From the sequence record OR924452: a DNA stretch of 64,000 nt; one strand, 5' to 3'. Source of the stretch: Escherichia phage 241. The position numbers and the translations under genes are program-made. Positions 2,914 to 58,649 of this stretch are shown one piece after another. The notes below the pieces were generated by a model, which was not told where the DNA came from, did not search any database, and worked only from the letters and a program-made list of their open reading frames with translations. How positions within the stretch are numbered: position 1 is the stretch's first letter; each line of letters begins with the position of its first letter.

Positions 2914-2917
2914 CAAA

Positions 2918-2944
2918 AACCCCGCTTCAGCGGGGTTTTTATTT
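2918..2944 (+). terminator. rho-independent terminator
   Basis: CCCCGC-TTCA-GCGGGG hairpin followed by TTTTTATTT directly after the tailspike stop. Confidence 0.7.
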
Positions 2945-2966
2945 CTATCTGTCTGTTGGCTGTATA

Positions 2967-2974
2967 CTAAATAT
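2967..2974 (+). promoter_or_regulatory. late-promoter-like motif CTAAATAT
   Basis: CTAAATAT about 30 nt upstream of ATG 3006; TATAAAT also present at 2978-2984. Confidence 0.4.
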
Positions 2975-3005
2975 CTCTATAAATGGCACTCGATGGAGCA
3001 TCAAA

Positions 3006-6000
3006 ATGCAATCTACAAATCTAAACCGTCGCCCGTATTGGGACGACTGGAATCCTGGAAAACGGTTTTCACGGATTCTTTTTCGCCCGATGCCTATTAA
3101 AGTTCAGACTCGTGAACTAAACCAGATGCAGACTATTCTGCAAGATCAGATTGAAAAGCTGGGAAACCATTTGTTCAAAGATGGATCTATGGTTATCCCT
3201 GGTGGTCTGACGATTACCAACGCCGCTGTATCTATGAAATTCACTCTGGCTGGCGGTACTGAGTTTACTGATCTGGAAGGGATTACTGAACTTTATGTTC
3301 TGGGAAAAGACAATAATGCCAAAGCGCGTGTGCTATCTCTTGAACGTGATCTGTCTGCTCCGGATACGATGTTGGCCATCCTTGAAATGACAGAAGTGGG
3401 TAATGCAGATGGCTTCCACGTCAACGACAATCTGTATTTCCAAACCTATGACGTCAATGACAACTTCATTCGTATTGGTTATGGTATCGCAGCTGCGGTG
3501 ACTGGTTCTATCGTCGCTCGTATGACGAAGGGCGTTTACTTCATTCGTGGGATGTTCCTTGATGTTGATGACGCGACTCTCATCGTCGATAAAACTTCAA
3601 ACACTTCTTCCCATCGCGTCGGGTTTAAAGTCACTGAAACCATCGTGACTGAATCTGAAGACGAATCCCTTTATTCAAACGCTCAGGGAACGATTAACTC
3701 CAAAGCCCCAGGCGCTCATCGTCTTCGAATAGATCTGGTCTTATCTCGATTTGATTATGATGCTGTGGTTGAAGACTTTGTTGAACTGGCCAAAGTTCGT
3801 GATGGTAAAATCCAGTCTATGGTGACTCAGTCCACCTATAATATTCTGGAAGACACGTTGGCTCAACGGACGTATGAAACCAACGGCGATTACAACGTTT
3901 CAACGCATCAGATCGACATCCGCGAACACCTGAAAGTCAATAACAATGGTGGTGTATTCAATGCTGCTGATGGCGGCGACGAAAGTAAATTCGTGTCTGT
4001 AATGAAACCAGGTATTTCCTATGTTCGCGGTCGTCGTATCGAAAACGTCGGGGAAGAGTTGGTGATCGTTGACAAGGCACGGGATACCGATGTCCTGAAT
4101 AACACGCCTGTCGCAGTTGCTACAGGGAATTATCTGGTCACCAAGAACTCCAAAGGTGTTCCAGTAATATCTCGCACTGTGCGATACAAGTTATTGAACG
4201 CATCTGGCGCTGCTCAAGCCACGGCGTTGTGTATATCCGCTGAACGCAATTCAACTGAATTCCGTCTGTACATGCGTGATTTGGTTGTGACTGGGGACGC
4301 GTCCACTATCACCAAAGTGTCTTATGAAGAAAGTGGTATCACCATGTTCTCTGCTGAACTGGAATCCAACCAGTTTAACCAGAGTTCTATGGTAGACTTG
4401 ATCTTCTCTCTTCCGGTCTTCGGTGTTAAAACATTAGCGCCAACAGGTTCCGTGGATATCAACTACACAGTCCTCAGAACTTATAAGGTGACGCTAGACA
4501 GCAGCGGTTCTGGTTCTATTTCAGCTCCGCTGGGATATAGTTTCTCTCCTGAATTTTCGTTGTATTCTTCTGCGAAATCCGATGGTTCAGAAGCGCAATT
4601 TGATATCTCTGGCTCTTTGTCACTGACTGGTTCTCCGGTGGGTTCGGCTTTGCAGATTTCCCTGGGTAGCGGTAATGCTAACCAGTCAATCAATTTGCTG
4701 GCACTGATGATCCGCACTACGGCCACGATCAAAACGAAGACGATAACTGAAACCACAGAGTCTGTGACTTTTACTTCCCAAACCAGTAGACCTCTGGCAA
4801 ATCACGACGGCTGGAAATTGGTATCTGTCAAAAATGATACTGGCGCGGACGTGACTTCGAGCTTCACCCTCGACGGTGGCCAACGCGATGCGGGATATTA
4901 CAAGGCTAATCTGTTATCCACCGCTGGAGCCATTTCAGGGACGTATACGGTGGTGTATCAATACTTCGCGCATAGTTCGGGGGATTTCTTCTCAGCGGAT
5001 TCGTATACTTCAATGGATTACAAAGATATCCCGAATTATACATCCTCCACATCAGGGGCGGTGTATGGTTTGGCCGATAGCCTTGATTTCCGTCCGAAAA
5101 TTACCAACGGGACATCCGACACTGATATGGTTCGCCCGAATACGGCTGTCATCCTGGACACAGAGTATTATTTGCCTCGTATCGACGCGATTTATCTGGC
5201 AGATAATGGCGTGTTTGGTGTAGCCCGTGGCATCAGTTCCAACAACCTGGCGTCCCCAGCAATACCTGCAAACTCCATGCGTTTGTATGAACTGTTGATT
5301 CCCCCATACACGCCGAATATCGATGATATACAAATTCGCACCATCGATAACCGTCGTTATACGATGCGTGATATCGGTAAACTGGAAACGCGTATTTCCA
5401 ACGTTGAATACTACACCTCTCTGTCGCAGCTGGAATCTTCGGCGATGACACAACAGGTATTTGATCCAATCACGGGTAATCCGCGATTCAAAAACGGTAT
5501 CGCCGCCGATCCATTCAAAGACTTCCGTCTTATTGATGATCTGTCTGAAGATTGGATGGGATCTATCGATACGGAAAATGGACGTTTGCGTCCGTTTGTT
5601 CAACAGAACGCCGTTGACATGACTCCAGTAGGCTGGAACAAAGTGATGGATGGTATGGTGGTTTGTAACTACACGCCTGAAATCTCCGTGAACCAAGAAT
5701 ACGCGACGACGACGATCAACGTTAACCCGTATGCTGTATTCAACTGGGAAGGTTTCTTGAAGATTAACCCGACCACGGATTACTGGTTTGAAAACTACTA
5801 TGTCGCCCCGCGTGTTATCAATGAAACGATCAACACTCGTGGTACTGTACAAGAAGGTTCGGTGTACGGGACGTGGCGTACTGTTTCTGTTTCTGATCGT
5901 GTTTGGGAGCCGCATGGCGCTGGTGGTGTGTGGTGGGGATACCGCTATCGCACGACTGTTTCTGCCCGTGATGTCACCACATACACATACACGGACAAAA

Positions 6001-11537: not shown

Positions 11538-13728
11538 TATAGAATATGCTCCGATAAAAACGGGGTTTAAAATCGACGACGTGAAATTGCGTATGGACCA
11601 GACGTTCATGCGCAAGCCTTCTGTGCGCGCTCCACGAGTCGAGTTGATGCTAACAGATGAACAAGAAGACGAATTTGTTGAATGTTCAATGGACGCACAT
11701 TACTTCGCTGCCAATTACTACAAGATAACGACAATCGATAAAGGCTTTATCCTTTTCGATATGCATGATTATCAGAAACAATTATTTCACGATTTTCAAG
11801 ATTATCGTTTCAATGCCGTTGTCCAGGCGCGTCAGTCCGGTAAATGCGTCCGTGGTGATACTCTTGTTTATGTCTATGATACAGTCAGTCAACAAGAGTT
11901 GCATCTCACCATAGAAGAGCTTCACAAGCGCTTCGAAGGACCGAACCATGCTGTGCCACTGAATACCATTGGCAACCACAATAAGTTTGTAGACAGCCGT
12001 TTCGGGAAACGATATTTTGTTGAGTCCGACACTGGCTGGGTTCCGGTTATTGCCGCTCATAAAACGAAAGAATACGCTGAATACGTGGTCAGGACTGAAA
12101 CCGGACGCACAATTCATGTCGCAGATGAGCACATGTTCTTCAATGAATATGGGCGCGAAGTATTTGCTAAAGACATGGAGGCCGGAGATGCCATAATGAC
12201 CCAGGAGGGAATAGAATTCATCTCTGAGATCTGGGAGACTGGTGAGTACCACCACATGTATGACTTGCAAGTCAAGTCCAGCGATCAACGTTATTACACG
12301 AATGGGTTCCTCAGCCATAATACCACGGTCGTGGCTGCGTTTCTTCTTTGGTATGCGATGTTCCACTCAGACAAAGAAATCGCGGTACTGGCAAACAAAG
12401 AGAAACAAGCGATTGAAATTCTTGACCGTATCAGGAAGGCGTATCAGGACCTCCCATTCTTCCTTCAGCAGGGTTGTGAGAAGTTTGGTTCTACACTGAT
12501 AGAGTTTGAGAACGGCTCTAAGATATATGCTTATGCAACGTCTTCGGACTCTATTCGTGGTCGTTCTGTATCTCTCTTGTACGTGGACGAAGTCGCGTTC
12601 ATCGAAAATGACTTTGAATTTTGGGAATCAACATTCCCAGCGATCGCATCTGCTGATACTTCACGTTGTATTCTTACCAGTACTCCGAAAGGCCAGCGAG
12701 GGTTGTTCTATGATATCGTCACCAAAGCAGACCCGCGCCATCCACAATACAACGATTTCCATCTTACCGAAGTCCCTTGGTACAAGGTTCCGGCGTACAC
12801 CAAAGACCCTGATTGGGAAACCAAACAACGCGCTCGTCTGGGGGATGCCCGTTTTGACCAGGAATTTGGAATCAAGTTCCGTGGTTCTGTAGGTTCATTG
12901 ATACCAGCCAAATGCTTGGATAAAATGACATCCAAGTTATATCGAGAGCCTAATGAGTTCACCAAAATTTACAAGGAATATGACCCGCAACGCATCTACT
13001 TCGGGATTGCAGATACGGGGAAAGGTGTTGAAGGAGATTATTCGGTTCTGACAATTCTGGATATAACGGAATACCCGCATGTCATAGCGGCCAAGTACAG
13101 GAACAATACAATACCTCCGATGATGTATGCATACACGATAGCTGATATGTGTACTGAATACGGGGAGTGTCCAGTCCTTGTAGAAACCAACAACGACGTT
13201 GGTGGACAGGTTATTACAATCTTGTATCAAGAAATTGAGTATCCAGAGATTATATTCACGTCGACGGATAACAAAGGGACAGGGAAACGGATTGGTGGTC
13301 GTAAACCAGAGCCAGGCATTAACACCAACAGGAAAGTGCGATCTATTGGTTGTGCTAACCTGAAAGCGCTTATTGAGAAAGAAATGTTGGTGATCGAAGA
13401 CCAAGACACGATAGATGAACTCAGCACATTCGTGTTCCGTGGTGCGCGTTATGAAGCAGATGATGGATGTCACGACGACTGCGTTATGCCGTTGGTATTA
13501 TATTCTTGGGCAGTTAAACAAGAATGGTTCAGTGATCTGACTTCTACCAGTATTTCTCAAGACATGAGAAATAGAATGTCTTCGACTGAGTCACAACAAG
13601 TATTCCCATTTGGTGGTTTAGTCGTGGGAGACACTCCATCTGGAACTGAGCATCTCCCTGGGTTCGGTGGTGTTCAAGTCTTCGACGAACGTTCAGGGAT
13701 GACAATGGACGAGTGGTTTAAGAATTGA
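11518..13728 (+). CDS. terminase large subunit, T4 gp17-like, interrupted by a mini-intein
   Basis: RFNAVVQARQSGK...TTVVAAFLLWYAMF matches T4 gp17 [24 protein letters not shown] once residues 110-268 are removed. Confidence 0.9.
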   Translation: MAYQKRDIEYAPIKTGFKIDDVKLRMDQTFMRKPSVRAPRVELMLTDEQEDEFVECSMDAHYFAANYYKITTIDKGFILFDMHDYQKQLFHDFQDYRFNAVVQARQSGKCVRGDTLVYVYDTVSQQELHLTIEELHKRFEGPNHAVPLNTIGNHNKFVDSRFGKRYFVESDTGWVPVIAAHKTKEYAEYVVRTETGRTIHVADEHMFFNEYGREVFAKDMEAGDAIMTQEGIEFISEIWETGEYHHMYDLQVKSSDQRYYTNGFLSHNTTVVAAFLLWYAMFHSDKEIAVLANKEKQAIEILDRIRKAYQDLPFFLQQGCEKFGSTLIEFENGSKIYAYATSSDSIRGRSVSLLYVDEVAFIENDFEFWESTFPAIASADTSRCILTSTPKGQRGLFYDIVTKADPRHPQYNDFHLTEVPWYKVPAYTKDPDWETKQRARLGDARFDQEFGIKFRGSVGSLIPAKCLDKMTSKLYREPNEFTKIYKEYDPQRIYFGIADTGKGVEGDYSVLTILDITEYPHVIAAKYRNNTIPPMMYAYTIADMCTEYGECPVLVETNNDVGGQVITILYQEIEYPEIIFTSTDNKGTGKRIGGRKPEPGINTNRKVRSIGCANLKALIEKEMLVIEDQDTIDELSTFVFRGARYEADDGCHDDCVMPLVLYSWAVKQEWFSDLTSTSISQDMRNRMSSTESQQVFPFGGLVVGDTPSGTEHLPGFGGVQVFDERSGMTMDEWFKN
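11845..12321 (+). mobile_element. mini-intein (159 aa) inserted in terminase Walker A motif between Lys and Thr of GKT
   Basis: Insert begins with Cys (CVRGDTLV), ends with His-Asn (FLSHN) and is followed by Thr; flanking exteins rejoin to a canonical P-loop; too short for an endonuclease domain. Confidence 0.8.
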
Positions 13729-15732: not shown

Positions 15733-16191
15733 ATGATATACGCATACAAAATTGAAATGGTTTGTAATGGAAAGGTCTACATCGGTGTGACCAATGACCC
15801 ACAACGAAGATATGATCAGCATTTTGCGAATGCCTTTCATCATGGAGTCCAAAGTGAATTGTATGACGCCATGCGTAAGTATGGAACATCTGGATTTACT
15901 TTCGTTGTAATTGCTCAGACCGATGAAGTCCATAAATGGGAATTAGAGAAGCAACTCATCGCTCAATATAATTCTTATGAGATGGGTTACAACATGAATA
16001 AAGGCGGTAATGATGGAAGTCATATGCTGGGTAAAACTGCAGCAAAATTGACATCCACAGGTGAACACATTGGTCTTGTTTCTCTCATAGATCCCCGTTG
16101 GGAATTGTGTGAAATCGAACCTGTTTCAAGTAATGTTCACCATGGTTTCGATCTTTCTTCTATGAAGATTAAAAGATTGACGACTAATTAG
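15733..16191 (+). CDS. GIY-YIG homing endonuclease (free-standing)
   Basis: N-terminal IYAYKIEMVCNGKVYIGVTNDPQRRYDQH matches GIY-x10-YIG with conserved Arg/His; inserted between sheath and tube genes. Confidence 0.7.
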   Translation: MIYAYKIEMVCNGKVYIGVTNDPQRRYDQHFANAFHHGVQSELYDAMRKYGTSGFTFVVIAQTDEVHKWELEKQLIAQYNSYEMGYNMNKGGNDGSHMLGKTAAKLTSTGEHIGLVSLIDPRWELCEIEPVSSNVHHGFDLSSMKIKRLTTN

Positions 16192-22352: not shown

Positions 22353-22439
22353 TTGTTTATCGTAACGATTTAATACGCGAATAGTTCAATAACAATTCCT
22401 GTTGTACGATATAACTTTCTTACAACAGGAGTATCAGTC

Positions 22440-22754
22440 ATGACAACCCGAAATATTACCTCTGAACAATCCGTGTCACAAATCCTCATTAATTCCCGCA
22501 CCCAAAAAGAACGTCTTTTTGACATCCTCACTAATGTGATCAATATTCGTCGACAATTAGATGGTGAATTTCCCGAATCTGATTCTGAAGAAAAATCAAC
22601 ATACAATCCAGGTCTTGTTGGTGCTATCCTTAACATACAAGGAGAGCAGGACGATATCATCGATAGAATCAATGCCCACATGGACGTCATCCATACTAAA
22701 CTGGGAACGTTTTATCACCCAAATTGTGAAGACGAGTCTAAAGATAATTGTTAA
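22440..22754 (+). CDS. hypothetical protein (104 aa)
   Basis: ORF with AGGAG RBS. Confidence 0.5.
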   Translation: MTTRNITSEQSVSQILINSRTQKERLFDILTNVINIRRQLDGEFPESDSEEKSTYNPGLVGAILNIQGEQDDIIDRINAHMDVIHTKLGTFYHPNCEDESKDNC

Positions 22755-22815
22755 TGTTTTCAATAAATGGGTAATGAACCATCATTACCCAACTTTCACA
22801 ATAGGAATACAACTC

Positions 22816-23010
22816 ATGGCAAAAGAAACTCTTAACAATGAAAACTCCAACTTTGCAGAATGGCATACCGAATTAGAGCGCGTTGCCCGTTCTCAACATG
22901 GTTCTGCCGCTGATGCAGATGCTTGGCGTGAAGATTATGAATCTGGCAAAACTCCACGTCAGGCTTGGGAAGACGAATGGGGGTGGGATGATGCCGACTC
23001 TAATCCGTAA
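22816..23010 (+). CDS. hypothetical protein (64 aa)
   Basis: ATG at 22816 chosen over upstream non-ATG start that overlaps previous gene. Confidence 0.35.
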   Translation: MAKETLNNENSNFAEWHTELERVARSQHGSAADADAWREDYESGKTPRQAWEDEWGWDDADSNP

Positions 23011-23685: not shown

Positions 23686-23922
23686 ATGAGAATCAAAAAG
23701 ATTGGAGCAAGCCCGTTGACGGGCACTATCTTCCAAGGTACATTGAATACCAAAACCAGTATGTGGGTAGGTGAGAAGACCGACGTGACTAACGACTGTG
23801 TAGCGGCTACGGCTGAACACATGCGCCACATCAAGAAAGACTACTGCTTCCCTACTAAAGACGGCAAGTTCCTGGTGCTGAGCGCTGAGGTTCACGACAC
23901 TCTTCCTGATCGCTTCAAATAA
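23686..23922 (+). CDS. hypothetical protein (78 aa)
   Basis: ORF with GAGG RBS. Confidence 0.45.
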   Translation: MRIKKIGASPLTGTIFQGTLNTKTSMWVGEKTDVTNDCVAATAEHMRHIKKDYCFPTKDGKFLVLSAEVHDTLPDRFK

Positions 23923-23947
23923 ATTTAAAATTTATTCAATAAACGGG

Positions 23948-23976
23948 GTTTACTTCTTCAATAAACCCCGTATACT
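23948..23976 (+). promoter_or_regulatory. sigma70-like early promoter (-35 GTTTAC, -10 TATACT, 17-nt spacer)
   Basis: GTTTACTTCTTCAATAAACCCCGTATACT; same architecture repeated at 58621 and 42577/42929. Confidence 0.5.
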
Positions 23977-24025
23977 TCATTCCATAAGCAGCACAACACT
24001 GACTCTGAAATGAAGGAACTACATC

Positions 24026-24490
24026 ATGACAACCGTAAAAATCTCCGTCTGGGCATTCAACAATTTCACCAAATTTGACGCGTTTGTTAAAAACGCTCTG
24101 GGCATCACCAACATAGAATCTTTCACTTCTTATGACCGCGAAGATCAGGTCAAAATGCTTCGTCCTGAAATCGACCTTGACGCAATGCTGAACGCCATCA
24201 AGAATCACGATGACAATCTGGCTGAATTCGAAAACCTCCGCACCTCTATCTTCAAAAAGAATGGCGGCATCCGTAAGCTGAGCAACAAAACCATCAAATA
24301 TGTCACCGAAGGGTTCTTTGTGGTGTTCGACTTCATAGAAACCAAGCCGAACGAACTTCGTAAAGATTTAGACGGCAACGTTATCACCCTGAAAATGTTT
24401 GGCGAAGCCAAGGCCGATATGATGCGTGATGGCCTGTGTGATGAGACATTCACATACGACGAATATTGCGATCAGTGCCAAGATCTGTAA
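24026..24490 (+). CDS. hypothetical protein (154 aa)
   Basis: ORF downstream of early promoter; GGAACTACATC-ATG context. Confidence 0.5.
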   Translation: MTTVKISVWAFNNFTKFDAFVKNALGITNIESFTSYDREDQVKMLRPEIDLDAMLNAIKNHDDNLAEFENLRTSIFKKNGGIRKLSNKTIKYVTEGFFVVFDFIETKPNELRKDLDGNVITLKMFGEAKADMMRDGLCDETFTYDEYCDQCQDL

Positions 24491-33101: not shown

Positions 33102-33566
33102 ATGGCGCGTAATACGCTGGACATCTTGAAACTTTCAGCTGTTAACGATGAGGCCAGCATCGTTGATTGTATGGTTGAAGTTCAATTGAACCAAGATAAA
33201 CCAGGAATTTTCCTGGGTATCAAGGAAACGCTGAGCCGCATCGGGGTGAACACTCGTCAAGAGCCGAATACCCTGTACCAAACATGTCATATTCTGCATA
33301 AATTTGGCAGATATCACATCGTGCACTTCAAGCATCTTTTCATGCTGGATGGGCATTACAACGGCTTTACGCGTGAAGATGTCCTGCGTATGAATCGGAT
33401 TATTCGGCTTTTGGAGCAGTGGAATATGGTTAAAATACTGCATCCGGAACAGATTACCGAAGTTGCTGATATGTCTCGAATCAAAGTTGTAAAACATGAC
33501 CAAGTTTCTGATTGGAAACTGGTTCCAAAATATACCATCCGCCCGAGTCGGGCGAAAAGCGAATAA
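33102..33566 (+). CDS. regA: translational repressor RegA
   Basis: QTCHILHKFGRYHIVHFKHLFMLDG and DWKLVPKYTI match T4 RegA; start may be the internal Met at 33171, which aligns with the T4 N-terminus. Confidence 0.85.
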   Translation: MARNTLDILKLSAVNDEASIVDCMVEVQLNQDKPGIFLGIKETLSRIGVNTRQEPNTLYQTCHILHKFGRYHIVHFKHLFMLDGHYNGFTREDVLRMNRIIRLLEQWNMVKILHPEQITEVADMSRIKVVKHDQVSDWKLVPKYTIRPSRAKSE

Positions 33567-34515: not shown

Positions 34516-35739
34516 ATGAAAGATAAACCGTGTGACATTCCTTATTGCGGTGTTCGGGAAACCAAAATTAAATCTGCACACCCCACGTTAAGTCCATTCC
34601 ATAAACAACTCGCATACGAATGGATGAGTGAGCGCTATAAGATCCACGTGAGAAAGGACGTCCAACGTCTTCCTGCTCCTTGGACGGATAATCCCATACT
34701 ACGGCAGGTCAAGTTCTGTAACGTCCGGAGAGAGCACGACAGGCAGTCTCTTAACCTGATCAACAATATCGTCAAGAACGATGCTCTGGGCATGGCCGAC
34801 AAGATGTTCAACTGTGTTCTGTTCCGCATGTTCAACCTCTGGGACCCGATCAAGGCTATCGGTGACGCTCGTACTATCAAAGAGTTCGCAAACATCGATC
34901 TTGATGCAACCCGCAAAAGTCTTCAGGAATTTGAGGCCAACGGTGGTAAGATCTTCACCAATGCCTTCAACACAGGCGGTCTAAAGCAGTGTCTGGCGTT
35001 CCCCGAACTCGTTGTCAACCACAAGGAGCAGCGCTTTGGTGGTATGATGGTTAAGGTACACCGTGTTGGCCAGGGTATCGTTGATGAATTGGATTACAAG
35101 GTCGCCAAGAAGCTGGTTGAAGAAAATCCTGGGGAGTACACGATCGAGGGCTGGGAGCCGTACATGCCGATGCGTGTTATCCGTTCCCTGAAGGCATTTG
35201 TCAACAAGTATCCTGATTATTTCAATGATCTTTTACGTCTTGACTCTCCGCTGAAAGTTTACCAGCGCATGTATGACGACATTGAAGGGCTTGGGCCATT
35301 CCTGGCATATCAGATATGGGTGGACTTCACATACATCCCTGAGTATCCATTCAGTGAGAATCACTTCACCATCGCTGGCCCAGGTTGCCGTGCGGGTATT
35401 GACCTGATGTTCCTGGATAAGGACGGTATGACTCATGAAGAGTGCATCTTCTGGGTTCGAGATCACCAGTATCAATTGTTTGCCCAGTATGGTTATGTCC
35501 AAGAGCAGTTCTGGTCAGCCGAAGCGCCGGAAGATCAGTGCATGAATGTCATGCAGCTGGAGAACATGTTCTGTGAATTGAGCAAGTACACCCGCTGTGT
35601 TGAGGCTATTGAGAGAGGGGAAAAGCCACGCGGCAAGGTCGGTTACGATGGAGGCGGAGAATACAAAAAGCGGTGCGATGAAGTTGTCCTTAAACGCGGT
35701 TCCGTCAATTTGTTAGATCGTTTGAAGAAACCTGAATAA
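34516..35739 (+). CDS. hypothetical protein (407 aa), Cys-rich
   Basis: ATG 34516 with GAGAGGATA RBS; no family assignable by inspection. Confidence 0.5.
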   Translation: MKDKPCDIPYCGVRETKIKSAHPTLSPFHKQLAYEWMSERYKIHVRKDVQRLPAPWTDNPILRQVKFCNVRREHDRQSLNLINNIVKNDALGMADKMFNCVLFRMFNLWDPIKAIGDARTIKEFANIDLDATRKSLQEFEANGGKIFTNAFNTGGLKQCLAFPELVVNHKEQRFGGMMVKVHRVGQGIVDELDYKVAKKLVEENPGEYTIEGWEPYMPMRVIRSLKAFVNKYPDYFNDLLRLDSPLKVYQRMYDDIEGLGPFLAYQIWVDFTYIPEYPFSENHFTIAGPGCRAGIDLMFLDKDGMTHEECIFWVRDHQYQLFAQYGYVQEQFWSAEAPEDQCMNVMQLENMFCELSKYTRCVEAIERGEKPRGKVGYDGGGEYKKRCDEVVLKRGSVNLLDRLKKPE

Positions 35740-35851
35740 AGAATCGCTTTACTTCATTCTTCAATAACCCCCTTTCAACGTATATTGACCTCACTTTAAC
35801 GACGCGCCCATTTAGGGCGCTCAATTTGAACTGAAACAGGAAGACTACACC

Positions 35852-37873
35852 ATGGCAGAATTTAAACCTTTCGCAACGGCTGTTAATGATAACGTGCTGG
35901 CGATGTCCGCAACTGGTCTGTTCATGACCAACGTTGATAAAGATGCTCTGTGGGATTTGTATTTGGCATCCTTCCCAGCTGGTACCAACCCGATGTACCG
36001 CGAACGCACTGAACACGACTGCACCTGCTGTAAACAATTCATCCGTAATATCGGCGGCGTCGTGACTATCGATGCTGACCTGAACGTTATCTCGATTTGG
36101 GACAACATTGAGCTGGGTAACGAATACGATGTGGTCGCGGCGGCGTTATCTGCATATGTCAAACAACACGCAATCGTTGATGTGTATTTCAACGATTCTG
36201 CTAAAGTCGGCCTGTCTCATAACCACGAATCTGGTGAAGACGGCAAAATCCGCACGTATAACCATTTCCACACAGAACTGCTCGGCAGCTATGTCCTGCG
36301 TTCTGATGCTATCGCATCTAAAAAAGGTGAAATCCGACAGGCTATCGAATTATTTGAACGCGGTCTGCGTGAAATTACTCTGGAATCAGCAGAAATCGTT
36401 CTGGAATTGATTGATCAGAATTCTTTGTATCGCGGTGCTGAACATAAAGCTGCGGTGATGGGCTTCGTAGTAGCCAAGACGGCATATGAAGAAATCCCAG
36501 AATCTAACCGTTCTCTGTGGGCATGGCGCACTGGTTATCGTTCAAACAATCATGTTCCACATGGCATTCGCAACACCGTTATCGGTACTCTGTTGACGGA
36601 TATCAGTGAAGGCGTGGAACTGGAAAAGGCCGTTAAGTCGTTTGAAACCAAAGTTGCCCCAGCGAACTACAAACGCCCGACGGCTCTGGTCTCCAAGTCC
36701 ATGATCGAAAACGCTCAGAAAGAAGTGATTGCTCTCGGTCTGGAAGATTCGCTGGCGCGTCGTTATGCAGTTTATGACGACCTGACGATCAATAACGTTC
36801 TGTTTGCAGACCTGGCTGCTCAAAAAGCGATGGATCCATTCGCTCAACTGGCCGCCGAAGTGAAAACGCCGACCAAGTCTCTGGATAAAGTTGAAGAGAT
36901 TGGCATTGATGACTTCCTGAGCAATATTCTGCCGAAAGCGCATTCGATGGAAGTGCTGGTTGAAAACTCGCATACTGGCAACCTTATGTCTCTGGTCGCT
37001 CCGGCTATTGCAGGTGCTCCTAACCTTTTCAAATGGGGCAACGGTTTCTCATGGTCATACAACGGCGAAGTGGCCGACTCCATCAAAGAGCGTGTGAAAG
37101 CGGCTGGCGGTAAAGTCGACGGGTTCCTCCGTGTATCCCTGGCCTGGCACAACAACGATGACCTCGATCTGCATATGTTCTTTAACAATATGGAACATGT
37201 GTACTTCCGCGATCGTCGTTCAATGACTGGTGCTCATCTCGATATCGACATGAACGGTATGGACGGCATCGACCCGAACCGCTCTCCGGTAGAAAACATC
37301 ATCTTCACTGATGAAAGAAAGTTGCGTGACGGTGAATATCGTTTTGAGATTCACAACTACAACCAACGTGAAAAGATCGACGAAGGGTTTGAAATTGAAG
37401 TTGAATACAAAGGCGCTACGCAACGTTTCAGCCACAATGGGTTAAAAGACCAGGGGCGCATCACTGCCGTCGTTCTGACTGTTAAAGACAAACAAGTCGT
37501 TAGCATCAAGTCTGAGCTGGCGAATGTTGATAAATCCAAAGAAATTTGGGGCATTAAGACAGCGACCTTCCAGAAGGTACAGCTGGTCCTGAACTCACCA
37601 AACCATTGGGATGGTGAACAAACTGGCAACAAGCACGTCTTCTTCATCTTGGAAGGTTGTGCGAATCCTGAAGGTACTCGTGGTTTCTACAATGAATATC
37701 TGAAGCCGGAACTGGATAAACATCGTAAGGTTTTTGAAATGCTGGGTAGTAAAATGAAAGTACAACCCAACGAAAACCAACTGTCTGGTCTGGGGTTCTC
37801 GACAACGCAACGCAACCATGTGTTCGTCAAAGTGTCCGGCGCGTTTAACCGTACTGTAAAAGTCATTTTCTAA
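35852..37873 (+). CDS. hypothetical large protein (673 aa)
   Basis: Long ORF with GGAAGA RBS; conserved-looking HDCTCC motif near N-terminus; no family recognised. Confidence 0.6.
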   Translation: MAEFKPFATAVNDNVLAMSATGLFMTNVDKDALWDLYLASFPAGTNPMYRERTEHDCTCCKQFIRNIGGVVTIDADLNVISIWDNIELGNEYDVVAAALSAYVKQHAIVDVYFNDSAKVGLSHNHESGEDGKIRTYNHFHTELLGSYVLRSDAIASKKGEIRQAIELFERGLREITLESAEIVLELIDQNSLYRGAEHKAAVMGFVVAKTAYEEIPESNRSLWAWRTGYRSNNHVPHGIRNTVIGTLLTDISEGVELEKAVKSFETKVAPANYKRPTALVSKSMIENAQKEVIALGLEDSLARRYAVYDDLTINNVLFADLAAQKAMDPFAQLAAEVKTPTKSLDKVEEIGIDDFLSNILPKAHSMEVLVENSHTGNLMSLVAPAIAGAPNLFKWGNGFSWSYNGEVADSIKERVKAAGGKVDGFLRVSLAWHNNDDLDLHMFFNNMEHVYFRDRRSMTGAHLDIDMNGMDGIDPNRSPVENIIFTDERKLRDGEYRFEIHNYNQREKIDEGFEIEVEYKGATQRFSHNGLKDQGRITAVVLTVKDKQVVSIKSELANVDKSKEIWGIKTATFQKVQLVLNSPNHWDGEQTGNKHVFFILEGCANPEGTRGFYNEYLKPELDKHRKVFEMLGSKMKVQPNENQLSGLGFSTTQRNHVFVKVSGAFNRTVKVIF

Positions 37874-38301: not shown

Positions 38302-38330
38302 GAAACCCCGCACACGGCGGGGTTTCTTTT
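38302..38330 (+). terminator. rho-independent terminator
   Basis: GAAACCCCGC-ACACG-GCGGGGTTTC hairpin followed by TTTT. Confidence 0.7.
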
Positions 38331-39693: not shown

Positions 39694-39960
39694 TTCTTCA
39701 AAAGTCTTTCAAAATCAATAACGTCCGGCAAAATGCTGGGCGTTTCAATTAATAAGCCAAGGTATAATGGCCCAACTGAAAACGCGGGGGAATTTCTTTG
39801 TCCAAGCCATTCATTCGTTCCGGAGTTGATTCTCTAGACTCCCAGTTTAAGCCGAGCGAAGTTTTAATCCAACAAATTGAAACCAATCGTGAATTCATAG
39901 AACACATGTTGGCAAAGCCGGAAGGTGAAGCCGCTCAAACCACCAAAGAAGGTAATAACG

Positions 39961-42183: not shown

Positions 42184-42210
42184 TTGGCGGGGAAACCCGC
42201 CTTTACTTTC
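42184..42210 (+). terminator. hairpin terminator
   Basis: GGCGGG-GAAA-CCCGCC hairpin followed by TTTACTTTC. Confidence 0.5.
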
Positions 42211-42215
42211 AGGAA

Positions 42216-42533
42216 ATGAATATGAGCAACAAACCGACTTATGTTGATGTCATGCGCGATTTGGCCCAATACGCATGTGACAACCTGAACATGGAAACTT
42301 GGCGCAACGGCGATCATAAAGAAAAGTTCGATAATATCGACGACAACATCGATGCGTTGGCTCCTCTTCGGGCCAAGAGCGATCTCGGCGGTGATGATCT
42401 TGACATGATTGAACTCATCATGGAAGTTGAAGAACAATATGATGTTGAAATCAGTGATGACTGGGTAGGCAAACATGGTGATGATCCCACGCTCGGCGAA
42501 TTAGCTGAATTGGTAGTTGCCCTCCGCAAATAG
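42216..42533 (+). CDS. acyl-carrier-protein-like protein with Asp in place of the phosphopantetheine-attachment Ser
   Basis: LGGDDLDMIELIMEVEEQYDVEISDD resembles ACP LGADSLDTVELVMALEEEF...IPDE but has DDL instead of DSL; start may be 42222. Confidence 0.5.
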   Translation: MNMSNKPTYVDVMRDLAQYACDNLNMETWRNGDHKEKFDNIDDNIDALAPLRAKSDLGGDDLDMIELIMEVEEQYDVEISDDWVGKHGDDPTLGELAELVVALRK

Positions 42534-42537
42534 CAGA

Positions 42538-42566
42538 AGTCCCCAACAAACCGTTGGGGATTTTTA
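42538..42566 (+). terminator. rho-independent terminator
   Basis: CCCCAAC-AAACC-GTTGGGG hairpin followed by ATTTTTACTTTT. Confidence 0.65.
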
Positions 42567-42655
42567 CTTTTAGGGGGTTTACTCTAGAGAAAGGATACCC
42601 TATTATCCAATAACACCAAACGTCGGGTTTGGTATTTGAAATGAAGGAATATAAT
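42556..42655 (+). repeat. direct repeat copy A (promoter plus 5' leader), about 100 bp
   Basis: GGGGATTTTTACTTTTAGGGG..TTTAC...CCTATTAT..CAATAAC shared with copy B. Confidence 0.6.
42577..42606 (+). promoter_or_regulatory. sigma70-like early promoter (-35 GTTTAC, -10 TATTAT)
   Basis: GTTTAC, 17-18 nt spacer, TATTAT; within repeat copy A. Confidence 0.45.
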
Positions 42656-42874
42656 ATGGCTATCTCACAAACCGTTGACCTCAAACCGTTTCATCTTAAC
42701 AACTTACCAAACGTGAAACTGGTACTATACAAAGATCCCTCAAATTTTTGTTGGGTGGCCAGTTGTGACACACATAACAACCGCCGTGCTGTTTGGGACT
42801 TCCCTCCAACAGACGAAGGGCGTGTTGAGGCCATCCGAAAACTAGAATTTGAAAATCTAAAACGGACAGCCTGA
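42656..42874 (+). CDS. hypothetical protein (73 aa)
   Basis: ATG 42656 with GAAATGAAGGAATATAAT-ATG context. Confidence 0.45.
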   Translation: MAISQTVDLKPFHLNNLPNVKLVLYKDPSNFCWVASCDTHNNRRAVWDFPPTDEGRVEAIRKLEFENLKRTA

Positions 42875-42892
42875 GATACCAAATAACAGAAA

Positions 42893-42925
42893 TCCCCAAT
42901 AATTTATTGGGGATTTTTACTTTTA
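42893..42925 (+). terminator. rho-independent terminator
   Basis: CCCCAAT-AATTT-ATTGGGG hairpin followed by ATTTTTACTTTT. Confidence 0.6.
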
Positions 42926-43003
42926 GGGGTTTACTTCTTCTAACGAATATCCTATTATTCAATAACTGGCTAACGTGGGGTTGGCTAGAAAAGGAGATAC
43001 AAA
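42909..43003 (+). repeat. direct repeat copy B (promoter plus 5' leader)
   Basis: Imperfect copy of 42556-42655. Confidence 0.6.
42929..42958 (+). promoter_or_regulatory. sigma70-like early promoter (-35 GTTTAC, -10 TATTAT)
   Basis: Within repeat copy B. Confidence 0.45.
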
Positions 43004-43243
43004 ATGAAACTACCAGGTCATATTGAAGTTTATATGCGGTTATACAAAGAAGGTAACGCCGCTGCTAAAGAACTACACGAACTGATTTTGTCATATGGCG
43101 TTAAGTCTGTTACAGAAGTAAAGAACAACAAAATAGACGGCGAATATGTGTCAATCAATGGGCGTGGTCTGAAAACCAACCCAACATATTTTGTGGGTGT
43201 CCATTTAGACACAGGGAAAGAAGTCGTGGAGATCGTGGCATAA
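43004..43243 (+). CDS. hypothetical protein (79 aa)
   Basis: ORF with AAAGGAGA RBS. Confidence 0.5.
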   Translation: MKLPGHIEVYMRLYKEGNAAAKELHELILSYGVKSVTEVKNNKIDGEYVSINGRGLKTNPTYFVGVHLDTGKEVVEIVA

Positions 43244-43482
43244 TGTCTAATAAGAAAGTTGAAACGACGGTAGAAATTGATCGTAATTGGGGATTACTCC
43301 GCGCTAAAGGTTTTCGTCGCGTTTATATGACCAAGGAAGTTTATGTTCAGCGTCGTGACGTTATTATCAGCAAGAAAGGTAAAGACTGGGTTGCCGAAGA
43401 AGTTGATGTTGAGACTGGCGTCGTCGGCAAGGTGAAGGCCAAGGCCGCGATCCTCTTCGCTCTTCTGAAGCATATCAATTAA
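43243..43482 (+). CDS. hypothetical protein (79 aa)
   Basis: ATG overlaps previous stop (TAATG). Confidence 0.45.
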   Translation: MSNKKVETTVEIDRNWGLLRAKGFRRVYMTKEVYVQRRDVIISKKGKDWVAEEVDVETGVVGKVKAKAAILFALLKHIN

Positions 43483-43493
43483 TTCTATAATTT

Positions 43494-43522
43494 ACGGCGG
43501 GGTATGATTATCCCGCCTATTT
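43494..43522 (+). terminator. rho-independent terminator
   Basis: GGCGGG-loop-CCCGCC hairpin followed by TATTTG. Confidence 0.5.
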
Positions 43523-43542
43523 GAAATTGCAGGAACTATATC

Positions 43543-43821
43543 ATGACAGATCAAAGAAGTATTGCTCGTTCGGAAATCAAAGATATTATACAGAGCAAGA
43601 CCAACGAAACTCATGTTCAATCCAGAATGCTATCTCGATTTGTTGAAATTAAGTTCGACATTGAAGAGAATAACAATCGGAGAGCGCTGGAGGGGATGTT
43701 GGCGATTATCTTGCGCCACGTCACCGATTCAACATATGATATGGATGATTTAACTCGTTTGTTGAACGCCCAGAATATCGTTGGGACTTCTGTTCGTGAA
43801 TTGCTGTTTAAGTCTGAATGA
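43543..43821 (+). CDS. hypothetical protein (92 aa)
   Basis: CAGGAACTATATC-ATG initiation context. Confidence 0.45.
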   Translation: MTDQRSIARSEIKDIIQSKTNETHVQSRMLSRFVEIKFDIEENNNRRALEGMLAIILRHVTDSTYDMDDLTRLLNAQNIVGTSVRELLFKSE

Positions 43822-43858: not shown

Positions 43859-44308
43859 ATGTTTCTTACATCCTTTATTGACTGGATGAATATCATAAAT
43901 GGCCTGAGGATTCCTGTTGGGAATCTCGGGCTTTCTCGTTCTTCTATGCCGCAAATCGATGCAGACAAACAAGAAGATTTTCACAAATATCTTGAAGATA
44001 ATGGCGTGTCCATAGATGCCGCACAAGTGCCCATCAAAATGCTTCGTCTTACCCAGAATGAAATCAATAAAATGAAGGTCTGGAAGATCATGAAGCAAAT
44101 CAGAAATAAGAAACCCATGGGTCGAGTTTGGGTGTCTTCTGACAATTACGTTGTTGACGGTTCTCACCGATTTGTCGCTGCGTTGAACATGGATGGTAAA
44201 CAGCGAATGAAGGTCTACAAAGTTGATTTGCCTGCGATGGAATTCGTAAAACTCGCCAAACAATTTCAGGGTGTGCGGTACAGAACGGTCAGCGATACCC
44301 GTTTCTGA
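43859..44308 (+). CDS. ParB-like nuclease domain protein
   Basis: VVDGSHRFVAALNMDGKQRMKVYKV matches the ParB/Srx DGxHR signature. Confidence 0.5.
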   Translation: MFLTSFIDWMNIINGLRIPVGNLGLSRSSMPQIDADKQEDFHKYLEDNGVSIDAAQVPIKMLRLTQNEINKMKVWKIMKQIRNKKPMGRVWVSSDNYVVDGSHRFVAALNMDGKQRMKVYKVDLPAMEFVKLAKQFQGVRYRTVSDTRF

Positions 44309-44387
44309 ATACGATAGTTTATTGAAACCCTTTACTCAACATGGTGAGCCGACTATCATTTTATCCAATGAAATAAGGAGAATCACC

Positions 44388-45077
44388 ATGAAACGTTTAA
44401 TCATCGGGGTTGTGCTGGCTGGTCTGGCACTTCCTGCCACCGCCAAGCTGAACTCCACAGGTGAAAAACTGTGGTCTGATCTTTCCTACTGTGCTGGGTT
44501 CTCCCAGGCGGTCGCTATCGACAAGTCCGGTTCCATAGAGAATTTTGCTGAACTTTGGAACACGGGTAACGTCTCCACTGCTGTTGTTAATGCTGGGATT
44601 GAGTTCAACCGTTACAAACAGGGAGCCTACAACTTGAAAGGCTACCTGAATGACGATGAATTTAACCGAGGAGGCATGGAGGCTGGCGATCTCATCATGA
44701 CTGGCCGTATGGGTACACAAGGCCGTATGACTGTAAGGCAATGCCGTTCTCTCCCCTCTCCGGCATTACAGAAGGGTGTGCAAATCGGGCGTCGACATCT
44801 GGATCTGATTAATGATGGCAACCAATGCATCAAGGTGTTTGAATATAGTGCCGACCAAGAATCAGATCGACGTTTGAAAAAGGAATGGCGGACACGTGCC
44901 CTTGGATTGAGAGCATGGCTGGTGGAAAATGATCATTATTATGAAGACCGTGTTCAGAATGGTTTGAAAGATCTTTCCACTAATTTGTCTGTCAATCTTG
45001 ATGATCCCAGGCTTGCCCGTGAACTCAAGCAAACAAGAATTGACTGTGATAATATGATGAAGGAGAACGAAAGATGA
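44388..45077 (+). CDS. secreted/periplasmic protein (signal peptide)
   Basis: MKRLIIGVVLAGLALPATA signal peptide; AAGGAG RBS; ATG 44388 inside ORF 44271-45077. Confidence 0.5.
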   Translation: MKRLIIGVVLAGLALPATAKLNSTGEKLWSDLSYCAGFSQAVAIDKSGSIENFAELWNTGNVSTAVVNAGIEFNRYKQGAYNLKGYLNDDEFNRGGMEAGDLIMTGRMGTQGRMTVRQCRSLPSPALQKGVQIGRRHLDLINDGNQCIKVFEYSADQESDRRLKKEWRTRALGLRAWLVENDHYYEDRVQNGLKDLSTNLSVNLDDPRLARELKQTRIDCDNMMKENER

Positions 45078-46251: not shown

Positions 46252-46308
46252 TTCAATAACAATCGGGCGGTTATTATTAAACCGCCTTTTATTTGAGAGA
46301 TCTATATT

Positions 46309-48576: not shown

Positions 48577-48659
48577 ACGCTTTATTCAATAATATTTGTT
48601 AGGTAAGCTGTAGTCCTCTTGTAGTGAAACATTGTAAACAACTAACTGGAGTAATCCGA

Positions 48660-52119: not shown

Positions 52120-52130
52120 GGATTATCACG

Positions 52131-58593: not shown

Positions 58594-58620
58594 ATTATTC
58601 AATAAAAGGGGCAAACGCCC

Positions 58621-58649
58621 CTTTACTTCTTCAATAACCCACGTATAAT
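58621..58649 (+). promoter_or_regulatory. sigma70-like early promoter (-35 CTTTAC, -10 TATAAT, 17-nt spacer)
   Basis: CTTTACTTCTTCAATAACCCACGTATAAT following a GGGGC-AAAC-GCCCC hairpin. Confidence 0.5.

Follow-up and report, generated by a model that had tools for sequence, protein, structure and literature searches.

The repeated motif described here is a real family of compact units of ViI-like (Ackermannviridae) phages, each joining a putative terminator to a putative promoter. These composite intergenic regulatory cassettes, built of a candidate hairpin and a candidate promoter, probably serve as recombination sites for the genes that lie behind them. The window, a stretch of 64,000 nucleotides from Escherichia phage 241 (record OR924452), belongs to a Kuttervirus (Ackermannviridae). 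It is about 98% identical to Salmonella phage Mooltan but distinct from it, with five gene-level differences, and no record in the phage collection fully covers its segment at 42.2-43.6 kb. A published statement on ViI-like phages describes their early and middle transcription signals as unidentified, early and middle regulation of the Ackermannviridae is stated in the literature to be unknown, and promoters are absent from a 2024 review of the family. The literature searched for an Ackermannviridae transcriptome yielded none. ViI-like phages are widely used in biocontrol, diagnostics and engineering.

Anatomy of the cassettes

About 12 members of the family lie between 22.3 and 58.7 kb of the window (Table 1). 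None was found among the structural genes (0.4-22 kb), whose gaps have ACTAAATA. Each unit extends from a stop codon to an ATG over 65-135 bp, and is longer than the earlier note had it. Two classes can be distinguished. First-class units contain one or two copies of the box TTCAATAA, a stable GC hairpin, the promoter-like sequence TTTACT-N16/17-TAtaaT, a leader that is conserved and unstructured, and a Shine-Dalgarno site. In the second class, TTCAATAA is positioned exactly 12 nt before a -10 hexamer that sits in the loop of a hairpin.

Table 1. Positions in the window of the cassettes and of the features associated with them
Feature	Position	Strand	Remarks
TTCAATAA 22385-22392, 12 nt, TACGAT in loop of hairpin 22395-22432, ATG 22440	22385-22442	+	-18 kcal/mol, z = -6.04
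Degenerate member: TTCAATAA 22759-22766, hairpin 22769-22790, no -10 hexamer	22759-22818	+	-
Site 1 cassette	23920-24028	+	from stop of ORF 23686-23922 (TAA 23920-23922) to ATG (24026) of ORF 24026-24490
Site 1, upstream copy of palindromic box TTATTCAATAA	23932-23942	+	-
Site 1 hairpin, arms ACGGGGTTTA (23943-23952) and TAAACCCCGT (23962-23971)	23943-23971	+	-14.0 kcal/mol, z = -3.76
Site 1 promoter-like sequence: TTTACT 23949-23954, 16-nt spacer with TTCAATAA 23957-23964, TATACT 23971-23976	23949-23976	+	-
Cassette: TTTACT 35748-35753, TTCAATAA 35760-35767, 13 nt, TATATT 35781-35786, leader hairpin 35804-35820, ATG 35852	35737-35854	+	-
Hairpin 39720-39744, TTCAATTA 39744-39751, 11 nt, TATAAT 39763-39768	39720-39768	+	indel junction at 39794-39804
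Cassette copy 1: hairpin 42535-42565, TTTACT 42578-42583, TATTAT 42601-42606, ATG 42656	42531-42658	+	hairpin -18.4 kcal/mol, z = -3.99
ORFan, 72 aa	42656-42874	+	absent from Mooltan; present in only 31 phage records
Cassette copy 2, direct repeat of copy 1: hairpin 42888-42918, TTTACT 42930-42935, TATTAT 42953-42958, TTATTCAATAA 42955-42965, ATG 43004	42872-43006	+	hairpin -16.9 kcal/mol, z = -4.70
Second class: TTCTATAA 43483-43490, 12 nt, TATGAT 43503-43508 in loop of hairpin 43496-43517, ATG 43543	43480-43545	+	hairpin -16.9 kcal/mol
Cassette: inverted box TTATTGAA 44319-44326, TTTACT 44331-44336, TATCAT 44354-44359, ATG 44388	44305-44390	+	boxes kept, spacer variable in 9 relatives
Second class: TTCAATAA 46252-46259, 12 nt, TATTAT 46272-46277 in loop of hairpin 46265-46287, ATG 46309	46249-46311	+	gene behind replaced in relatives
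Fragment: lone TTATTCAATAA after stop codon, no hairpin, no -10	48582-48592	+	-
Site 2 cassette	58591-58700	+	from stop of ORF 57955-58593 (TAA 58591-58593) to ATG 58698
Site 2, upstream copy of palindromic box TTATTCAATAA	58595-58605	+	-
Site 2 terminator-like hairpin AAAGGGGC-AAAC-GCCCCTTT, U-rich tail coinciding with -35 TTTACTTC	58605-58624	+	-13.6 kcal/mol, z = -4.84
Site 2 promoter-like sequence: TTTACT 58622-58627, 16-nt spacer with TTCAATAA 58630-58637, TATAAT 58644-58649	58622-58649	+	10/12 matches
Conserved unstructured leader CATAAGCAGTACGACACCAACTTGAAAAGCAGGAACTATATC and Shine-Dalgarno	58656-58697	+	near-invariant in relatives, z = +1.37; second copy at 23983
Exchangeable ORFan slot, 122 aa in the window	58698-59066	+	four other unrelated ORFans there in relatives
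Putative terminator hairpin of the slot ORFan itself	59078-59094	+	right junction: homology with relatives restarts here

The earlier note had reported the same order of parts at 23931-23976 (site 1) and 58595-58649 (site 2). All the sequences it quoted are where it had placed them, but at site 1 TTTAC is not preceded by the hairpin: the -35 and the spacer lie between the hairpin arms, and no clean U tract follows. The related versions that it recognised at 42538-42606 and 42893-42958 each carry a hairpin and TTTACT-N17-TATTAT; the fragments of the motif that it noted are present, at 46252 and 48582; and 35748-35767 is, as it had described, a half-unit without a well-spaced -10, TTTACT lying 27 nt from the -10 there. 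Its list of copies was incomplete, the members at 44331, 43483, 39744, 22385 and 22759 having been missed. The reiteration itself is far above chance.

Indeed, TTCAATAA occurs 17 times in the window against 4.1 expected, a number reached in none of 100 shuffles, and 12 of these 17 copies are intergenic, whereas intergenic DNA makes up 5.3% of the window (P = 2e-12). The 16-mer TTTACTTCTTCAATAA has two exact copies, and five with up to 3 mismatches for 0.97 expected. The pattern TTTAC-N17/18-TAWNMT gives six matches against 0.99 expected, five of the six being intergenic and on the + strand. TTTACT-N16/17-TAT(A/T)(A/C)T starts at 23949, 42578, 42930, 44331 and 58622, with an ATG preceded by AGGA 39-49 nt further on. 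The whole genome of one relative contains about ten first-class promoter-like sequences and nine TTCAATAA-N12-TAnnnT (0.23 expected). All of these sites, about 19 in total, are intergenic and, where the downstream sequence reaches a start codon, face the gene. A generic sigma-70 promoter scan of the window barely exceeded the shuffled background (40 versus 34 and 47 versus 37), so matches to the consensus alone are weak evidence. An exact search for TTTACTTCTTCAATAA in IMG/VR returned, among the matches listed, nearly all on contigs of unrelated size, and we read these matches as mostly due to chance.

On folding, the cassette hairpins reach -12 to -18 kcal/mol, with z-scores of -3.2 to -6.0. 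Their terminator features vary: long stems are followed by UUUUUACUUUU at 42535 and 42888, a short stem is followed by UUUACUUCUUC at 58605, and the hairpin at 23943 lacks a U tract. The GC core of the site 2 hairpin (GGGGC/GCCCC, 58608-58621) is only 5 bp long. In the Mooltan annotation, a terminator is placed at the single counterpart of the 42535 and 42888 copies. A stable hairpin that adjoins or overlaps a well-spaced, sigma-70-type promoter-like sequence is in line with the modular terminator-promoter unit that the earlier note had proposed. The conserved leaders folded as unstructured, and the idea of a structured leader RNA was therefore dropped. A search of the 22-60 kb region against Rfam gave no match.

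Conservation of the cassettes in related phages

A motif search through the whole window and its relatives, suggested in the earlier note as a check, found the motif to be conserved and under strong constraint. Among 16 genomes of several genera, the mean pairwise identity of the site 2 cassette is 0.90, compared with 0.61 for third codon positions in the gene that precedes it. Changes at site 2 are limited to the hairpin loop and to the 6 nt before the -10. The stem is invariant while the loop varies, and in one relative the whole hairpin is flipped; TTCAATAA at 58598-58605 is invariant across the 15 related loci, and the T that opens the 11-mer varies. At 46252, 43483, 35760 and 44331, the boxes and -10 hexamers are likewise conserved and the spacers variable in the relatives compared.

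From TTTACT to the ATG, site 1 is 96-100% identical in four relatives. One relative is 70-74% identical to the window over 23837-23936, upstream of the box, and 100% identical from 23937. The similarity between sites 1 and 2 continues through the leader to the ATG (73% over 109-110 nt; 80% from the -35 to the ATG). Judged by this resemblance, the two sites are clearly paralogues.

Gene exchange at the cassettes

Behind site 2 is found one of five unrelated ORFans; the left junction coincides with the ATG, the right one with the hairpin that comes next. Between lineages with flanks of 74-76% identity, the same slot ORFan reaches 90%, and unrelated ORFans occupy the slot in genomes whose flanks are 93-96% identical. 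Some ORFans are stacked and linked via the ribosome-binding module of the cassette itself. The ORFan at 42656-42874 lies between two direct cassette copies; in Mooltan, this ORFan is missing and one hybrid copy is left. The two copies of phage Det7 are 91% alike, compared with 75% and 88% to their positional counterparts in the window. Cassettes themselves duplicate too, as at 42.5/42.9 kb. At the cassette at 43480-43545, alignment blocks overlap by 46 nt where the DenV indel has its junction, and at 35760, the first base of TTCAATAA, homology restarts in five of nine relatives after different inserted genes.

Cassette regions, which represent 4.5% of the sequence, contain 12 of the 25 breakpoint clusters, a count in which the events are not independent and the general tendency of indels to fall at gene boundaries is left out of account. 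The junctions fall recurrently inside the conserved cassette, at the ATG, the leader or the hairpin, and the alignment blocks overlap by 8-46 nt or by about 100 nt, corresponding to flanking direct repeats. Comparison of the relatives showed recombination at cassette homology as the mechanism of these exchanges over evolutionary time. The spread by recombination suggested in the earlier note holds insofar as the units lie at recombination junctions and cassettes duplicate; however, it is mostly the gene behind that moves, with the cassette as its conserved docking site.

From sequence and conservation only, we infer that the cassettes have promoter and terminator activity. The hairpin would stop or attenuate RNA polymerase coming from upstream, and its U-rich tail doubles as the -35 TTTAC at 58.6 kb and 42.5/42.9 kb. 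The host sigma-70 polymerase would then restart at the cassette promoter, whose -35 is T4-early-like. Each small ORFan would therefore be insulated and separately driven, and would find a translation start already in place. As the comparison of relatives shows, general recombination uses the conserved 60-110 nt as its homology, and the genes behind are thereby deleted, duplicated, stacked or replaced, within and between genera. The cassette acts as a fixed socket and the ORFans as plugs.

Likeness to the promoter cassettes of T4-like phages

Docking points for gene exchange have been described before, in T4-like phages, as PeSL (promoter-early stem-loop) cassettes (Arbiol et al. 2010, PMC2839356; Comeau et al. 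2014, PMC4122927). Like PeSLs, the units described here are intergenic, from stop codon to ATG, with sigma-70-like -35 and -10 boxes, a Shine-Dalgarno site followed by the ATG, and an AT-rich upstream part (for example TAAATTTAAAATTTATTCAATAAA at site 1 and TAAATTATTCAATAAAA at site 2). Many copies occur in variable regions beside ORFans, none was seen among the structural genes, and the junctions of indels and replacements between relatives fall inside the units. The PeSL stem-loop is GC-rich, stable and variable in position, with five subclasses; it may lie upstream of the -35, between the two promoter boxes, across the -10 or downstream. The stem-loops found here are located upstream of the -35 (58605, 42535, 42888), around the -35 and spacer (23943-23971), over the -10 (46265, 43496, 22395) and downstream (35804).

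The differences concern the host family (Ackermannviridae instead of the T4-like Straboviridae), which is a limit of the PeSL description and not a mechanistic requirement; the -35, which here is TTTACT and not the consensus of E. coli; the presence of TTCAATAA as an additional family box; and the conservation of one cassette across genera along with its leader. For PeSLs, promoter and terminator activity was shown with reporters and mini-circles by inverse PCR; for the present cassettes such activity is predicted. In the PeSL literature searched, no Ackermannviridae case was found. The PeSL idea, that regulatory cassettes serve as recombination joints, now reaches beyond T4-like phages into a second family, in which there is also direct evidence of exchange between genera.

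Similar predictions exist in the GenBank record of the Dickeya phage LIMEstone1 (HE600015; Adriaenssens et al. 2012, PMC3296691). It lists a 'putative middle promoter' overlapping a 'putative factor-independent terminator' where the 58.6 kb cassette has its counterpart. The class given is middle and differs from the early transcription proposed in the earlier note. A hairpin-TTCAATAA-TTTACT-N17-TATTAT unit is likewise labelled as middle promoter and terminator, while a TTCAATAA...TTTACA-N15-TATATT unit is a 'putative early promoter'. The accessible part of the LIMEstone1 paper (PMC3296691) contains nothing on reiteration, cross-genus conservation or recombination. The annotations are predictions by likeness to the T4 consensus, and their coordinates are about 20 nt off the sequence.

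The -35 of T4 early promoters is GTTTAC. These promoters, which drive small early genes and are described as UP/-35/TGn/-10, resemble the cassette promoters in being of sigma-70 type, with a (G)TTTAC-like -35, a spacing of 16-17 nt, TAtaaT and AT-rich upstream DNA. They have a TGn extended -10, which is absent at all five sites here: the -10 hexamers are preceded by the triplets ACG, CCG, CCC, TCC and GAC.

The TTCAATAA box and a possible activator

The role of TTCAATAA itself is not accounted for by the cassette model that we prefer. To our knowledge, the box is no good fit to an IHF, H-NS or DnaA-box site. A signature motif of ViI-like phages was reportedly put forward by Adriaenssens et al. 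in 2012 (Arch Virol 157:2035). In the available text of PMC7283392, it is quoted as TTCAAT[N14]TATAAT. Its first half is the TTCAATAA box, which is thus family-wide and not private to sites 1 and 2. The exact geometry (box, 12 nt, -10) is found at 46252, 22385 and 43483 and a near-exact one at 35760 and 39744, in intergenic positions facing the downstream gene. At sites 1 and 2, TTCAAT lies 8 nt from the hexamer (23957/23971 and 58630/58644), the box lies 6 nt from the -10 and TTTACT is at the -35 position, so that both sites fall outside the signature. The description, as far as quoted, consists of the motif and includes neither a hairpin-promoter cassette nor a role in gene exchange.

We consider it possible, if rather unlikely, that TTCAATAA, with its palindromic form TTATTCAATAA, is the binding site of a phage-encoded transcription factor. 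At 12 nt from the -10, the box would replace the -35 by a MotA-like appropriation of sigma; within or just upstream of TTTACT promoters, it would retune them or shut them off. In that case, the cassettes would primarily be timing switches, and their part in recombination would be incidental. The excess of TTCAATAA-N12-TAnnnT in the relative's genome points in this direction, as does the geometry that the second class shares with T4 middle promoters, where the MotA box is 12 +/- 1 bp from the -10. A 14-nt spacer, as between TTCAAT and the -10, lies outside the usual sigma-70 spacing of -35 and -10, and no TGn is present at these sites. Conservation extends to the box and the -10 but not to the spacer, 4 of the 11 boxes on the + strand are extended to the palindrome, inverted copies TTATTGAA stand just upstream of three -35 elements, and 'middle' is also the class chosen by the LIMEstone1 annotators.

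However, no homologue of T4 MotA or AsiA was detected by phmmer and tblastn in all ORFs of the window and of one whole related genome (best E 0.3-1.5), and the candidate box is without a known binding protein. Its sequence differs from the T4 MotA box, (a/t)(a/t)(a/t)TGCTTtA. The middle-promoter geometry is absent from sites 1 and 2; among the flagged sites, the distance from box to -10 floats between 6 and 10 nt while the spacing of TTTACT is fixed, which a passenger sequence would explain as well as an operator would. The AT-rich box could also be a simple UP-like element. Were this reading true, the flagged cassettes would represent the cis-acting half of a new switch from early to middle transcription, with a factor unrelated in sequence to MotA.

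Other explanations of the repeats

Gene turnover might also result from homing endonucleases and illegitimate recombination at gene ends, the cassettes then being common promoters located at gene boundaries by coincidence. Free-standing homing endonucleases are plentiful in the family: a GIY-YIG gene is present at 15733-16191 of the window, LIMEstone1 has 14 of them, and a 1.3 kb insertion at 35654-35732 in one relative resembles, by eye, a homing endonuclease gene. Several exchange junctions also fall at simple gene boundaries that have no cassette (43243, 46970, 47575). We nevertheless regard this explanation as improbable. The five slot ORFans and the ORFan at 42656 are small proteins, each matching only a PHROG family of unknown function; the junctions return repeatedly to the inside of the conserved cassette, with direct-repeat overlaps; and the stacked ORFans are joined by its ribosome-binding module.

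Selection could alternatively act at the RNA level, the hairpins being 3'-end stabilisers or processing sites and the leader TTGAAA.G.AGGAACTAtATCATG an operator on which a translational repressor would act, for instance the RegA homologue annotated at 33102-33566. The leader and ribosome-binding module are conserved as much as the promoter and recur before many genes, some of them without a promoter. This seems doubtful as a general explanation, since the -35, the -10 and the box are equally invariant, though outside any transcript begun at the cassette, the leaders are unstructured and Rfam gave no matching family. It accounts for neither the promoter spacing nor the gene swaps, and would complement the main explanation rather than replace it.

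That the repeats are functionless neutral leftovers of recent duplications is hardly credible: sites 1 and 2 and the pair at 42.5/42.9 kb are clearly paralogous, but in the sequences compared the pattern of conservation already contradicts this reading, the site 2 cassette being kept across genera far above synonymous sites and box, -35, -10 and stem being retained while loops and spacers vary.

Taken as regulatory units that double as recombination sites, the cassettes provide a concrete list of candidate promoters and terminators, and one leader and promoter are conserved enough that they may serve as a portable expression module. Sockets such as 58698-59094 would mark where the family naturally takes in foreign small genes, likely host-takeover or anti-defence genes, and would offer natural insertion sites for engineering.

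Genomic setting and motif counts

Between 23000 and 25000 the window matches Salmonella phage Mooltan (Kuttervirus, Ackermannviridae) at 100% identity; in all, 274 phage records have matches to this stretch. Mooltan 37258-101300 is about 98% identical to all 64 kb of the window, with five gene-level differences. Genes for DenV (endonuclease V) and for a LysM peptidoglycan-binding protein are found in Mooltan and are absent from the window (at about 43540 and about 47575, respectively), and unrelated sequence replaces the genes at 46311-46970 and 58701-59089. No record of the phage collection fully covers 42200-43600. Almost all genes of the window are carried by the + strand.

The earlier note had described reiterated putative terminator-promoter units at what are here called site 1 and site 2, and every sequence that it quoted was found where it had been placed. 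Both sites are intergenic cassettes running from a stop codon to an ATG. A motif search of the whole window and of relatives revealed that the motif is in excess and that its elements are conserved. TTCAATAA occurs in 17 copies where 4.1 are expected, and intergenic DNA, which makes up 5.3% of the window, holds 12 of them (P = 2e-12). The 16-mer TTTACTTCTTCAATAA has two exact copies, and TTTAC-N17/18-TAWNMT is present six times against 0.99 expected, five of the six being intergenic and on the + strand. At site 1 the quoted elements are present, but the GC arms enclose the -35 and the spacer instead of lying ahead of them. Sites 1 and 2 also resemble each other beyond the promoter, as far as the ATG: they share 73% identity across the entire gap and 80% between the -35 and the ATG, leader included.

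Features of the window and their positions
Feature	Position	Remark
Structural genes	0.4-22 kb	
Replication, recombination, many small genes of unknown function	22-64 kb	
Intein in large terminase	11845-12321	
GIY-YIG endonuclease gene	15733-16191	
Site 1 cassette	23920-24028 (+)	ATG 24026
Site 1 hairpin arms	23943-23952; 23962-23971	ACGGGGTTTA; TAAACCCCGT; enclose -35 and spacer
Site 2 cassette	58591-58700 (+)	ATG 58698
Class-one hairpin with TTTAC tail	42535-42583; 42888-42935; 58605-58627	
Class-two examples	22385-22432; 43483-43517; 46252-46287	
Members beyond the earlier list	22385; 22759; 39744; 43483; 44331	
TTGAAA.G.AGGAACTAtATCATG module, examples	24003-24028; 42633-42658; 43520-43545; 58673-58700	
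ACTAAATA	2966; 9481; 13731; 18512; 19730; 57252 (+)	

Two cassette architectures

The anatomy of the cassettes was drawn from all intergenic gaps of the window and from the whole genome of a relative with about 92% identity, phage Liang dang 541. Class one consists of TTTACT, 16-17 nt and TAT(A/T)(A/C)T, usually with a GC hairpin ahead whose U-rich tail is TTTAC. TTCAATAA often lies within the spacer, 0-3 nt past TTTAC, and a second TTCAATAA or an inverted TTATTGAA is often found just upstream. TTTACT keeps a constant distance to the -10, while TTCAATAA stands anywhere from 6 to 10 nt away from it. Class two consists of TTC(A/T)ATAA, exactly 12 nt and TAnnnT, with the -10 hexamer commonly within the loop of a GC hairpin; nine such sites were found in the Liang dang 541 genome against 0.23 expected. 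It is the published motif TTCAAT[N14]TATAAT, which reportedly goes back to Adriaenssens et al. 2012. All hairpins tested by folding are stable (-12 to -18 kcal/mol, z -3.2 to -6.0); folding revealed no structure in the leaders (z +0.7 and +1.4), and no Rfam family was matched. These two recurrent architectures and their conserved elements support the proposal that the units are modular.

In Liang dang 541 the 16-mer TTTACTTCAATAAAAC is duplicated in tandem directly 3' of a hairpin (13005-13036 of its locus), so that two candidate -35 elements overlap. Many small genes are preceded by the conserved module TTGAAA.G.AGGAACTAtATCATG for translation start, which also joins stacked ORFans in relatives; the RegA homologue (33102-33566) could use this module as an operator.

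Conservation of the cassettes

Counterparts of the site 2 cassette were collected from 15 IMG/VR loci, several of them from other genera. In one of these, from a contig of 152,427 bp, the counterpart is the same in sequence as that of LIMEstone1 (HE600015) over the stretch shown in both. Over the 110 nt of the cassette the mean pairwise identity is 0.90, compared with 0.61 at third codon positions of the adjacent upstream gene. The box, the stem, TTTACTTCTTCAATA and TATA do not vary, nor does most of the leader; the variable positions are in the hairpin loop, in the 6 nt ahead of the -10 and at a few bases that follow it. Nine relatives retain the box or -35 together with the -10 at 46252, 43483, 35760 and 44331, with changes in the spacer. 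Because this non-coding DNA evolves much more slowly than synonymous sites, the comparison argues for functional cassettes; which function they serve we infer from their sequence.

Gene exchange at the cassettes

A single-gene slot (58698-59094) follows the site 2 cassette. Five unrelated ORFans (122, 91, 123, 111 and 77 aa) occupy it in different genomes; they show no mutual similarity, and each matches only a PHROG family of unknown function. On the left, homology with the window stops at the ATG (58701-58712). On the right, of the 13 loci with a different ORFan, 11 regain homology at 59078-59101 and one at 59190. This right junction is a T tract that follows the hairpin belonging to each ORFan and precedes TTTCGCTAATTAAGG, which the loci share. 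Two genomes with flanks 93-96% identical carry unrelated ORFans here; conversely, genomes with flanks of only 74-76% identity can share an ORFan at 90% identity. Three loci have two stacked ORFans, joined by the cassette's own ribosome-binding module TTTGAACCGAAGGAACTATATCATG.

Elsewhere, the ORFan at 42656-42874, present in only 31 phage records, lies between two direct copies of a cassette of about 110 bp; the Mooltan counterpart has one hybrid copy and lacks the ORFan. Det7 has the ORFan and both copies, which are 91% alike each other and 75% and 88% identical to their positional counterparts in the window, a pattern that fits exchange between cassette copies. At 35760, homology with five relatives restarts exactly at TTCAATAA, past different inserted genes, and in one relative (L136) identity is 70-74% over 23837-23936 and rises to 100% at 23937, a position shortly after the upstream TTCAATAA of site 1 begins. 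Between 33 and 52 kb, 12 of 25 breakpoint clusters fall in cassette-bearing gaps, although these gaps represent only 4.5% of this sequence; the binomial P of about 2e-10 overstates the case, because events are non-independent and indels favour gene boundaries anyway. The coincidence of exchange junctions with cassettes supports the link with recombination that the earlier note had suggested. The core of site 1 is 88% identical to the LIMEstone1 site 2 cassette and 80% to site 2 of its own genome; judged by this comparison, sites 1 and 2 are paralogues with a mosaic history.

Whole-hairpin inversions distinguish the window from close relatives at 58608-58621 (GGGGCAAACGCCCC, GGGGCGTTTGCCCC in L144), at 35804-35820 (GCGCCCATTTAGGGCGC, GCGCCCTAAATGGGCGC in L131) and at about 38305-38321 (CCCCGCACACGGCGGGG, CCCCGCCGTGTGCGGGG in five of nine relatives, other loop variants in four). 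Each inverted form is the exact reverse complement, which suggests intrastrand template switching or cruciform recombination as the way in which the hairpins flip. Other mobile elements of the same regions are the GIY-YIG gene, the terminase intein and a 1.3 kb insert in relative L126 (about 2070-3280), between window 35654 and 35732, which by eye resembles a gene for a homing endonuclease that carries a TTACTT-type promoter of its own.

Relation to PeSLs

Promoter-early stem-loop cassettes (PeSLs) of T4-like phages are units from stop codon to ATG. They comprise an AT-rich stretch, boxes of sigma-70-like type, a Shine-Dalgarno site and a polyG/polyC stem-loop, for which five positions are described, and they cluster in hyperplastic regions beside ORFans, at indel junctions (Arbiol et al. 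2010, PMC2839356; Comeau et al. 2014, PMC4122927). The window cassettes share all these sequence-level properties; PeSLs are also defined experimentally, by reporter activity and mini-circles. The observation in the earlier note is confirmed and its interpretation partly supported, as to modularity and recombination; we classify the units, by their sequence, as a PeSL-like cassette family in Ackermannviridae. None of 39 papers that mention both PeSLs and phages concerns Ackermannviridae, a 2024 review of the family does not mention promoters, and according to the CBA120 paper informatics could not identify early promoters. The family motif is already published and, in one relative, LIMEstone1, the cassette is already annotated as promoter plus terminator: the record labels the counterpart 'putative middle promoter' and 'putative factor-independent terminator'. 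It lists another, related unit as 'putative early promoter'. These labels derive from similarity to T4 consensus sequences. The annotated features at LIMEstone1 61690-61730 (1191-1231 of the extracted locus) lie about 20 nt off the elements evidently meant.

Proposed mechanism and timing

Architecture, excess over chance, conservation and coincidence with exchange junctions are observed. Beyond these, we propose that hairpins would end transcripts arriving from upstream and that sigma-70 polymerase would restart at TTTACT-N16/17-TAtaaT. In class two, transcripts would begin within the hairpin's 3' arm and would therefore lack the terminator. The phage recombination genes UvsY, UvsW and gp46/47, encoded in the window, may use the conserved 60-110 nt as homology.

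The 14-nt spacer of TTCAAT/TATAAT is too short for ordinary -35/-10 recognition, TGn is absent at sites of this type, and MotA/AsiA homologues were not detectable in the window or in one whole related genome. In T4 the MotA box is located 12 +/- 1 bp from the -10 (PMC2988021), and TTCAATAA-N12 has this same geometry. Because of these points, an activator other than MotA/AsiA might bind the TTCAATAA box, which we consider unlikely; if so, the flagged sites would still be cassettes, now part of a timing switch.

ACTAAATA occurs six times in the window against 1.6 expected, always in gaps ahead of structural or late genes. It is presumed to be a late promoter served by the window's gp55 homologue (about 52116-52901). 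It matches CTAAATAcCcc, which PMC7283392 quotes, with TTCAAT[N14]TATAAT, as unique regulatory motifs of ViI-like phages.

RefSeq names a gene near the acyl-carrier-protein locus of Det7, bering and Mutine "RNA polymerase ADP-ribosylase", in conflict with the CBA120 paper, which is said to report no Alt/Mod homologues in ViI-like phages; the name bears on how these phages retune the host polymerase. Thymidines are hypermodified in the DNA of ViI-like phages, and this may affect the T-rich cassette elements.
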